31,195 nt of DNA from Promethearchaeota archaeon (lineage in GTDB: Archaea; Asgardarchaeota; Lokiarchaeia; Sigyniarchaeales; SOKP01). The notes under the pieces were generated by a model. It had not been told where the DNA came from. It saw only the letters and a program-made list of their open reading frames with translations, and ran no database searches. This document shows positions 28,655-30,636 of the stretch, piece by piece. The translations under genes and the position numbers were made by a program. The stretch spans positions 1 through 31,195 of the forward strand of contig JBHLMP010000046.1 of the NCBI GenBank assembly GCA_048938025.1, in the 5' to 3' direction. Position 1 is the stretch's first letter; each line of letters opens with the position of its first letter.

Positions 28655-29677
28655 TTAAGTTTGAGATAATAATTCAATTAAAGCTCTTGGTATTTCTTTA
28701 TAATCCTTTACAGCATAAAATTTACCACGTCCCGCTTGAGCTAGATCTCTACATGTTTCAATACCTCTATCGGCATCATTCTCAGCAGGCATTCCAATAA
28801 CATGCAATTTTGGATATTTTTTTGCCAATTCAATAGGATCCTGCCCTCTATTACTTATGCCATCGCTTATAAGGATTCCAAAGCGATTTTTTCTATTTTC
28901 CTTTATTTTATTTAACTCTTTTAATCCCTTTTCTAATCCTATATAAATATTTGTAAAACCAACAGCCTCAGAATCTAAAATATCATCAATTATAGAACTA
29001 ATTGGCTTTTTCTGATTAATTTTTTTCATAACCATAGCAGTCGAATTAAATAAAACAATAGCAAAATCTTCCTTTTCCATATTATAAGCCAATACTGAAG
29101 TTGTAAGTGCCGCATTTAATAGTAAACGCCCATACATACTTCCACTAGTATCTAGAATCAATGCAACTTTTCTTTTTTGTCTTTTTCTTTCAATTCCATA
29201 AATATCTCGGTAACTTAAAGATCTATTAAGAATCTTTAATGGATTATGCTGAATAGTTTCATCCATATTGAATTCAGGCATTCCAATTTGGTAATATGGA
29301 ACAGTCTTTTTATATTGTCCCCTTATTCCTTTGCTTGTTATTTTTAATGATAATTTTAAAATACTTTGGCGTGCCAATCGTCTAAAAATCTTTTTATATT
29401 TTTCAGAAATTGGACGCCTGATGAAAAAGTAAATTTCTGGCATAAATTCTCCTGACTCTTTAGCTTTTTCTGAAAAGAATCTAACACCTTCATCAGTATC
29501 TATAGCATCTGTTGCTGCATACACATTTGATTTTAAAAGTCCGATTATAGCTTCAAGGTTTTTGTATTGAATTGCTACATATGTTAATTCTTTTATCTGC
29601 TTATAATCTAGAGAACTAGCTAAATGTTTATAATAATCAGGTTTTTTCTTTTTCTTTCTTATTATTTCATACCTCAA
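28655..29677 (-). CDS. von Willebrand factor A domain protein (CoxE/MoxR partner)
   Basis: MIDAS DTSGSM, GFTNI and ILISDG. The frame is open upstream to 29779, overlapping the end of moxR. Confidence 0.9.
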   Translation of the reverse strand: MRYEIIRKKKKKPDYYKHLASSLDYKQIKELTYVAIQYKNLEAIIGLLKSNVYAATDAIDTDEGVRFFSEKAKESGEFMPEIYFFIRRPISEKYKKIFRRLARQSILKLSLKITSKGIRGQYKKTVPYYQIGMPEFNMDETIQHNPLKILNRSLSYRDIYGIERKRQKRKVALILDTSGSMYGRLLLNAALTTSVLAYNMEKEDFAIVLFNSTAMVMKKINQKKPISSIIDDILDSEAVGFTNIYIGLEKGLKELNKIKENRKNRFGILISDGISNRGQDPIELAKKYPKLHVIGMPAENDADRGIETCRDLAQAGRGKFYAVKDYKEIPRALIELLSQT

Positions 29678-29763
29678 AATCTCTTTATCAGGTGGTCTTT
29701 CAGTAAGTCTAACGTGCAGTCTCTTCTCAATCTCTTCGGAATTTTCCTCTGAGAAATCATCGA

Positions 29764-30636
29764 TTATTGAAAATCCGATTCATTTAAAACAGCAAGAACA
29801 ATATTAGTAATTATTTCTTTTTTTGATTGAGTCAAACCATCTTCTAGTTCGATCTTATTATATAAGGACATTACAGCTGATTCAACCCAATTCTTTGAAC
29901 TATTATCATTACCATATTGACTAATTAAAGCAGCCATATCGATTGCTCCTCTAATAGAGCTCCCCCTACGTATTGATGTGTTTTCTCTTGTTTTTTGGAT
30001 TATATTTTGAGATATTGTAGCAATTTTATCGACATTGCCATCACTTAAATTCGCTTCTTGTTTAATAATTAGAATTTCTTCTTCGGGATTTTGATAATTT
30101 AATTTTATCCAAACAAATCGATCAACCAATGCTTCTCCTAATACAGTTACGCCTACATGAGCAGATGGATTTTGGGTTGCTATTACAAAAAAATCTTTAT
30201 GAGCATGAATAGTTTTTAATTTTGGAATTTCTAAAATTCCTTCATCCAATGCTGTTAATAATTCATTTTGAGTACTTTCAGGCATTCTATTGATTTCATT
30301 TATAAATAAACATCCTCCTTCTAACATAGCACGTACAAGTGAGCCTTGTACATAAGTATCTTCAATATATCCCTTTGCAATTACTAAAGGAGGATCAAAA
30401 TAACCGACAAGATTATGTGTGAGAGTTTCTTCTGAACAGTCAATACGATAAAAATTCCAATCAAAATAAGCGGCTACAGCTTTCGCAATAGTTGTTTTTC
30501 CTACTCCAACTTCTCCTTCTATTAATATATGTTTACCTACTGAGTGAGCTAAAAGAATTTGTTTTAACTCTTCTGTTCTACCAATTATCTTATATTTCTC
30601 TTGTATTTCTTTTACTATTTTGGTTGTATCAACCAT
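29764..30636 (-). CDS. moxR: MoxR-family AAA+ ATPase
   Basis: IIGR, Walker A GEVGVGKT, Walker B LFINEINR, QNELLTALDEG, VIATQNP, ALVDRF and SIRG. Confidence 0.92.
   Translation of the reverse strand: MVDTTKIVKEIQEKYKIIGRTEELKQILLAHSVGKHILIEGEVGVGKTTIAKAVAAYFDWNFYRIDCSEETLTHNLVGYFDPPLVIAKGYIEDTYVQGSLVRAMLEGGCLFINEINRMPESTQNELLTALDEGILEIPKLKTIHAHKDFFVIATQNPSAHVGVTVLGEALVDRFVWIKLNYQNPEEEILIIKQEANLSDGNVDKIATISQNIIQKTRENTSIRRGSSIRGAIDMAALISQYGNDNSSKNWVESAVMSLYNKIELEDGLTQSKKEIITNIVLAVLNESDFQ

Follow-up and report, generated by a model that had tools for sequence, protein, structure and literature searches.

We examined a stretch of 31,195 nucleotides (nt) from a Promethearchaeota archaeon (GenBank assembly GCA_048938025.1, contig JBHLMP010000046.1; hereafter the window, to whose numbering all coordinates of the locus refer), in which the gene for a MoxR-type AAA+ ATPase (moxR) overlaps an open reading frame (ORF) for a protein with a domain of the von Willebrand factor A type (vWA). 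All parts of the locus lie on the minus strand. The 3′ end of moxR reads ...AAT GAA TCG GAT TTT CAA TAA, and the vWA reading frame stands at -1 relative to it: closed upstream by a TGA (29782-29780), it is open from 29779 to 28655 (374 codons), and the two frames overlap by 16 nt. Within this overlap sits an in-phase heptamer, G_GAT_TTT (29776-29770), one codon (CAA) before the stop. A preliminary description of this DNA had reported the moxR ending, the -1 frame, the TGA, the extent of the overlap and the placement of the heptamer, and all of them were recovered on re-reading the letters. It had further proposed that the two genes are fused by a programmed -1 ribosomal frameshift, and it is this proposal that we evaluate here. 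The features of the locus, all on the minus strand, are as follows.

30636-29764, minus strand: moxR coding sequence, the zero-frame product being a MoxR-type AAA+ ATPase of 290 amino acids (aa); stop codon TAA at 29766-29764
30115-30531, minus strand: AAA_5 domain, residues 36-174 of MoxR; its Walker A is GEVGVGKT, and INEINR stands at the Walker B position
29780-29782, minus strand: TGA that closes the -1 frame upstream and restricts the shift window to 16 nt
29751-29776, minus strand: near-invariant 26-nt block, GGATTTTCAATAATCGATGATTTCTC, from column entropy in 43 family members
29770-29776, minus strand: proposed -1 shift site G_GAT_TTT, with the Asp codon in the P site and the Phe codon in the A site
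29764-29769, minus strand: zero-frame CAA and TAA stop, immediately 3′ of the shift site
29725-29763, minus strand: candidate downstream hairpin, weak, with outer stem UGAUUUCU/AGAGAUUG and inner stem GGA/UCC
28655-29770, minus strand: vWA part in the -1 frame, 371 aa and a stop, comprising an acidic linker, a helical N-terminal region and a C-terminal VWA domain
29675-29677, minus strand: TTG, the first ATG, GTG or TTG of the vWA frame and the start chosen by gene callers for a 340-aa protein; not conserved
28688-29167, minus strand: VWA domain (Pfam VWA, E 1.7e-9), with the metal ion-dependent adhesion site (MIDAS) DTSGS at 29152-29138

A -1 slip at the heptamer would yield a predicted fusion of 289 + 371 = 660 aa, with the trans-frame junction ...VLNESDF|SIIDDFSEE... 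and the junction peptide ...NESDFSIIDDFSEENSEEIEK. The 31 codons from TCA (29770) to the TTG read SIIDDFSEENSEEIEKRLHVRLTERPPDKEI; as had been described, they contain no in-frame ATG, and the first ATG, GTG or TTG of the frame is the TTG at 29677-29675. The linker in the vWA frame upstream of the canonical starts is SIIDDFSEENSEEIEK.

For comparison, we fetched 100 loci (L002-L101, the present locus included) from 24 Asgard families. The sample is non-random: the genus contributes 23 loci, the rest of the family 20, and every further family between one and eight, with additional loci of family f18 included once it proved exceptional. One locus (L055) ends before moxR, leaving 99 with moxR upstream. 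Of 41 relatives sampled, 40 have an orthologue of the vWA open frame, as do 254 of 400 genomes in the phylum (E <= 1e-30). Among the 99 loci, the vWA frame lies at -1 in 88, which represent 20 of the 24 families, and at +1 in nine, while two loci are single ORFs. Among the 80 loci listed by a further genome scan, all from Promethearchaeota/Asgard, 79 are at -1 and one is at +1; the scan mostly repeats the same genomes, was not added to these counts and has no bearing on other phyla. The vWA frame is open back to the heptamer in all 88 of the -1-phase loci. In three of these (L039, L095 and L096) the shift window is just 10 nt long, so that the heptamer is the sole place at which the frame could change.

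The two single ORFs are natural in-frame fusions. One encodes 714 aa (L060, family f24), with AAA_5 at residues 42-180 and VWA at 548-664; the other encodes 588 aa (L061, family f21), with AAA_5 at 43-181 and VWA at 434-546. Both a conserved -1 phase across orthologous junctions and in-frame fused homologues, which the preliminary description had suggested looking for, are thus found in the sample. Longer fused close relatives were absent from the protein database at E <= 1e-10 among proteins of 656-2000 aa, which is weak evidence.

Fused forms in two lineages, and the error-prone nature of homopolymer runs, would also suit an indel introduced by assembly or sequencing, or a gene that was once fused and is now decaying into a pseudogene. 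However, the same phase recurs in 88 assemblies, both frames bear the marks of purifying selection (see below), and contigs from four sediment metagenome runs carry zero inserted or deleted letters over 29600-29950. An assembly indel, which had been named beforehand as a way in which the proposed frameshift might fail, is therefore absent from these contigs, and we consider the chance of an artefact or a pseudogene negligible.

Inspection of the 88 junctions revealed a permissive heptamer in every one of them, in phase and 0-2 codons ahead of the moxR stop. We called a heptamer permissive if it has the form N_NNY_YYZ in phase, in which the A-site tRNA re-pairs, and canonical if it has the form X_XXY_YYZ, in which the P-site tRNA re-pairs too. 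The stop follows 0, 1 or 2 codons past the heptamer in 28, 58 and 2 loci, respectively. The permissive pattern occurs at 9.4% of moxR codons, which corresponds to a chance occurrence within the last three codons of ~25.5% of genes; the slippery heptamer near the stop, whose conservation had likewise been proposed as a check, is kept in 88 of 88. The most frequent forms are G_GAT_TTT (41 loci), A_GAT_TTT (12), T_TTT_TTC (9), A_AAT_TTT (8) and T_TTT_TTA (7), followed by G_GGT_TTT, A_AAT_TTC and T_GAT_TTT (2 loci each) and by T_TTA_AAG, C_CAT_TTT, T_CAT_TTT, C_CCT_TTT and A_AAC_CCT (1 locus each). Canonical heptamers are present in 31 of the 88 loci, and 15 of the 20 families have a canonical member. 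Genomes named Promethearchaeum sp. carry A_AAT_TTT at the same junction.

Codon usage bears directly on how these heptamers are to be read. At the present locus 97% of Asp codons are GAT and 84% of Phe codons are TTT, and with such AT-rich usage its heptamer alone is weak evidence. GC-rich relatives, by contrast, keep the heptamer against their codon bias. In L046 (62% GC) none of the other Phe codons is TTT (0%) and 21% of Asp codons are GAT, and the junction nevertheless reads GAT TTT TTC; the junctions of L041 and L042 use GGT, which accounts for 17% and 23% of their Gly codons; and L039 forms A_AAC_CCT with AAC, 10% of its Asn codons. These cases argue for nucleotide selection rather than protein conservation alone. 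The product of the codon probabilities before the slip codon, taken over one locus per family in 20 families, is 10^-5.6, a value that serves as a rough guide only because the families are related.

As the shift site is a T run, and runs of T6-T8 occur in some families, transcriptional slippage could in principle change the frame at the RNA level. The run is only 4 T long in the present family, whereas the slippage-prone runs described in the relevant part of a published study span at least 8-9 (PMC3711429), and we regard this explanation as very improbable.

We then considered where translation of the vWA part would begin if it were independent of moxR. No ATG, GTG or TTG is conserved as its start: within the genus, the position of the first such codon varies between codons 21 and 113 of the open frame. 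In L007 none precedes codon 113, and the TTG at 29677-29675 is TTA in L003. Over the 88 loci, the first downstream start lies between -1 and +326 nt from the heptamer, and database entries for the vWA protein use more than 10 different start positions, giving proteins of 289 to 367 aa. A vWA start codon of the orthologues' own, which, together with variable phase, had been foreseen as a counter-indication to frameshifting, is not conserved across this sample.

The residues of the genus alignment are conserved from GFSIIDDFSEE onward, that is, from the junction itself. Codon-position entropy is 0.37/0.17/1.01 upstream of the junction in the moxR frame; in the 90 nt past the stop, read in the vWA frame, it is 0.23/0.14/0.68 in the genus and 0.44/0.46/0.76 in the 43 family members. 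Coding periodicity changes register exactly at the junction, and the -1 frame beyond it is open and coding-like. Judged by these substitution patterns, both frames are under purifying selection. The periodicity, combined with the absence of a conserved start, indicates that the linker is translated and that it lacks a conserved means of initiation.

The annotation by gene callers agrees with a different scheme, in which vWA translation starts at the first downstream ATG, GTG or TTG (here the TTG at 29677), the open stretch ahead of it stays untranslated, and the heptamer is a by-product of a D-F ending in an AT-rich genome, as the GAT and TTT usage of the locus would allow. This scheme is at odds with a first start that wanders over more than 90 codons in one genus while the intervening residues are conserved with third-position periodicity, with a frame that is open to the heptamer in all 88 loci, and with the retention of the heptamer against codon bias in GC-rich relatives; we judge it improbable. 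We also rejected the ATG at 29760-29758 as a vWA start. It lies in the moxR frame, two codons past the stop (TAA TCG ATG), and opens an ORF of 27 codons (29760-29677) that ends at a TGA overlapping the TTG. This small ORF is explained by the I-D-D residues that the vWA frame encodes there, and it probably has no meaning.

To describe the downstream RNA, we folded the 45 nt starting 3 nt past the heptamer and ranked the result against every window of the two genes. By family median, the fold percentile is 0.10 or lower in 12 of the 20 families, and stem sequences differ between families. The strongest folds are those of L056 (-25.0 kcal/mol), L046 (-18.4), L081 (-18.0), L041 (-17.5) and L052 (-15.7). 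Strong hairpins begin ~6-10 nt past the heptamer, and in many of them the 5′ arm resembles GGAGG and the 3′ arm CCUCC; a segment of this GGAGG/CCUCC type is lacking in the present family. Here the candidate hairpin (29763-29725) is two-part, with a minimum free energy of -7.7 kcal/mol at percentile 0.087 of same-gene windows, and 92% of cells pair in the 43 sequences of the family. RNAalifold gives -7.9 kcal/mol in the genus, and single-sequence z-scores are mostly ~0 (L027, -2.95). The preliminary description had pointed instead to a possible TTCTCA...TGAGAA stem. These letters are present and start 15 nt past the heptamer, but the stem is unsupported, one of its six pairs failing in 30 of 43 sequences. 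No covariation above shuffles was found in the 43 sequences, either for this stem or for the 29763-29725 hairpin.

The sequence around the junction is itself strongly conserved. A 26-nt block is near-invariant in 43 species of 11 genera and spans five consecutive synonymous sites of the -1 frame; its column entropy is 0-0.5, compared with 0.2-1.6 beyond it. No variant letters are listed for 29751-29799 in the contigs from the four sediment metagenome runs. The block is under RNA-level constraint of some kind. A search of 29550-29900 against Rfam returned a single chance match, miRNA-like, with E 0.35 and below the gathering score.

Two further observations concern the same region. The summed depth of contigs from the four sediment runs peaks at 29744-29791, 10- to 100-fold over the flanks, and ~45 nt at these positions are shared nearly exactly by contigs of many related organisms. 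Moreover, GATGA in the vWA frame (encoding D-D/E; here 29762-29758) occurs no more than 78 nt past the moxR stop in 70 of 88 loci, from 17 of 20 families, is replaced by GACGA in one locus only, and in most families sits immediately 3′ of the hairpin; it could be either a protein motif or an RNA element.

A number of findings weigh against programmed frameshifting. The canonical heptamer is missing from the present family, all 43 members of which have N_GAT_TTT only; heptamer positions 2-7 are invariant in 43 of 43, and the first base is G, A or T, which implies poor re-pairing in the P site. The protein sequence of MoxR conserves a D/N-F ending, which in AT-rich genomes would by itself often give NAT TTT. 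The hairpin of the present family is weak, starts ~10 nt past the heptamer, compared with the 5-9 nt expected of a stimulatory structure, and lacks covariation, and 2 of the 20 families have no better-than-average fold (f3, median percentile 0.51; f10, 0.96). Related genomes are non-independent samples. In families f12-f15 there is a conserved in-frame ATG ~60 nt downstream; the residues ahead of it are also conserved, for example KPYVFRGKM in f13. Finally, the -1 phase is that of an ordinary 4-nt stop/start overlap, and TTGA or ATGA is found in 7 of the 88 loci.

The last of these points would suit two separate proteins, the vWA protein being made by termination-reinitiation or translational coupling at a non-canonical codon of the junction (ATA or GTA in the present family, TTG or ATG in a TTGA or ATGA overlap in some families). 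The present locus reads ATAA, many families have a purine-rich, Shine-Dalgarno-like GGAGG after the stop, and coupled initiation may contribute in the families that have TTGA or ATGA. Yet the codon that overlaps the stop varies, being ATA in 38 and GTA in 5 of the 43 members of the present family and TTA or CTA elsewhere, and archaea do not usually start translation at ATA or GTA. This variation weakens reinitiation at the ATA, which the preliminary description had offered as its own alternative. Coupled initiation also leaves unexplained the in-phase T_TTY kept against codon bias, the 10-nt shift windows and the natural in-frame fusions, and we consider it rather unlikely. Programmed -1 ribosomal frameshifting, in which slippage would join moxR and vWA into one recoded unit, is instead favored by phase, heptamer, fused homologues and the absence of a conserved start, and we regard it as probable; on the strength of comparative sequence analysis, the original proposal is supported.

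In the frameshifting mechanism that we propose, most ribosomes would read moxR to the TAA and release the 290-aa ATPase, while a fraction would slip one base back on G_GAU_UUU (29776-29770). The A-site tRNA-Phe would re-pair from UUU to UUU, and the P-site tRNA-Asp would re-pair poorly, from GAU to GGA. Shifted ribosomes would then read UCA AUA AUC GAU GAU ... in the vWA frame and produce the 660-aa MoxR-linker-vWA fusion. The stop one codon downstream and an RNA element within the ~20 near-invariant nt past the heptamer probably act as stimulators, the element presumably being a hairpin in most other families. How efficiently ribosomes slip would set the proportion of free MoxR to MoxR tethered to vWA, for instance at a single tethered adaptor in each hexamer; at low efficiency, rings of free MoxR bearing about one such adaptor would result. 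That slippage happens, how efficient it is, what the stop and the hairpin do, and the purpose of setting a stoichiometry are all inferred here.

A more far-reaching version of this model is speculative and, in our estimate, doubtful: the junction could be a phylum-wide, ancient recoding signal in which the adaptor exists only as an extension of MoxR, the efficiency sets the number of adaptor-bearing subunits in the hexamer, the stop is part of the signal, and the junction has been solved anew repeatedly, by a -1 shift, by a +1 shift on UUU_CGN in the Heimdall-type family f18, and by fusion.

The nine loci with vWA at +1 are L033 and L062-L067 (f18), L058 (f32) and L059 (f24), and they share a conserved TTT_TTT_CGN near the moxR end. 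The named Heimdallarchaeota record in f18 is L176. These loci could employ a +1 shift in which tRNA-Phe moves from UUU to UUC while the Arg codon CGN occupies the A site; alternatively, vWA could have its own start there, either a TTG within the overlap or an ATG located 7-10 nt past the stop (an ATG that L062 lacks).

The closest known system is the frameshift of the chlD chelatase genes, which the preliminary description had cited as a precedent. In the published accounts, as far as the sections cited here describe them, chlD genes have an AAA+ ORF with a vWA ORF after it in the -1 frame, an A_AAA_AAR site that shifts at 10-63% in reporters, and fused homologues elsewhere (PMC3711429; PMC9227772). 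As proposed here, a short AAA+ product and a long AAA+-vWA product arise from one locus that is annotated as two genes. The present ATPase, however, is of the MoxR type (AAA_5/AAA_3) rather than the ChlI/BchI type, and it falls outside the chelatase family: the BchD-ChlD model TIGR02031 gives 27 bits where its cut-off is 499.55, and the Mg_chelatase family PF01078 matches only partially and weakly (E 4.3e-5). The ten flanking ORFs scanned from seven relatives included no gene for a chelatase large subunit. The shift site also differs, being X_XXU_UUY (here G_GAT_TTT) and not A_AAA_AAR, with a stop 0-2 codons past it, and the present pair comes from Asgard archaea.

The heptamer itself has counterparts in plant viruses. 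GGAUUUU is the -1 site of red clover necrotic mosaic virus, as the preliminary description had it. It is also a -1 site in RNA2 of pea enation mosaic virus, which reads G_GAU_UUU_UGG_UAG and for which, in the passages cited, GGAUUUU was verified by mutation and a stop 3 nt downstream was required for efficient shifting (PMC4737148; PMC5009743). The two sites share heptamer, phase and stop spacing, and at the present site, as in the virus, a single Watson-Crick pair would re-form in the P site; the stop 0-2 codons past the site in all 88 loci recalls this arrangement. The viral site, in contrast, belongs to a plant RNA virus that is translated by eukaryotic ribosomes and uses a long-range 3′ element, whereas the present, predicted one lies in a cellular archaeal gene. 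In the more far-reaching version outlined above, a nearby stop that is part of the signal, as in the plant umbravirus site with the same heptamer, would hint at a shifty-stop mechanism common to archaeal and eukaryotic ribosomes.

Within archaea, a 2021 review counts, in the part cited here, a single demonstrated programmed -1 frameshift in a cellular gene (PMC8211752). For fucA1 of Saccharolobus solfataricus, the same source describes a pair of ORFs that overlap and are connected through -1 slippage at a heptamer, followed by a putative stem-loop (PMC8211752). Like the present pair, fucA1 is a split cellular archaeal gene with a -1 heptamer; its heptamer is A-rich, and the gene is described as interrupted only in S. 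solfataricus P2 and 98/2 and full length in other Sulfolobales (PMC8211752). The present site, by contrast, is conserved in 20 families of a phylum and would give two functional products.

We found no published MoxR, Asgard/Lokiarchaeota or AAA+/von Willebrand frameshift of the present kind, although the supplementary tables of GeneTack might list such a cluster. If true, the junction would be a rare conserved programmed frameshift in a cellular archaeal gene, held by 20 Asgard families, and a model of conserved archaeal recoding that is testable in cultured relatives. The annotation of the moxR-vWA pair would be corrected, and a concrete hypothesis would be at hand for the control of subunit ratio in MoxR/vWA machines.

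Such machines include NorQ-NorD and CbbQ-CbbO, in which, as here, the gene for a MoxR-type ATPase adjoins a gene for a MIDAS-containing vWA protein (PMC13036017). In NorQD the vWA domain reaches with a finger into the hexamer pore of the ATPase, a mode that the authors, in the portion of the article cited, presume to be general (PMC13036017). NorQ-NorD and CbbQ-CbbO are separate polypeptides with their own starts, whereas the vWA protein here apparently arises solely as an extension at the C-terminus of its ATPase. The Walker B position here also has N-E instead of D-E.

MoxR matches Pfam AAA_5 (E 2e-21) and AAA_3 (E 2.6e-19), has the Walker A motif GEVGVGKT of a MoxR-type AAA+ domain, and is nearest among NCBIfam models to GvpN (84 bits, under the cut-off of that model). 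The usual Walker B motif is hhhhDE. MoxR has INEINR at this position and thus lacks the canonical form; among the 88 of 99 MoxR sequences that match the pattern, 87 have N-E and one (L061) has E-E, with 11 of 99 unmatched. In the vWA protein, the VWA domain occupies residues 205-364 of the 374-aa open frame, and of the MIDAS DxSxS motif D, S, G and S are invariant and T nearly so across the 20 families.

The ten flanking ORFs scanned, which come from seven relatives, encode TPR, BcrAD, HisRS, flavoprotein, PAPS reductase, enolase-like, HypF and Ras-like proteins and two proteins with no Pfam match; among them we saw no conserved gene neighbours that would hint at a client. In one close relative a gene for a Ras/Roc-family small GTPase lies directly downstream of vWA (L105:3057-3644), and the other relatives scanned have unrelated genes there. 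The same genome as the window also encodes an 826-aa vWA protein (VWA_2, VWA_CoxE) at G000:C73:12400-14880 (L182:1601-4081, minus strand). We rejected this paralogue as a MoxR-vWA fusion, as it is a long vWA protein with no AAA+ domain. Its vWA part is 27% identical to the present one, and orthologues of ~830 aa occur throughout the genus.

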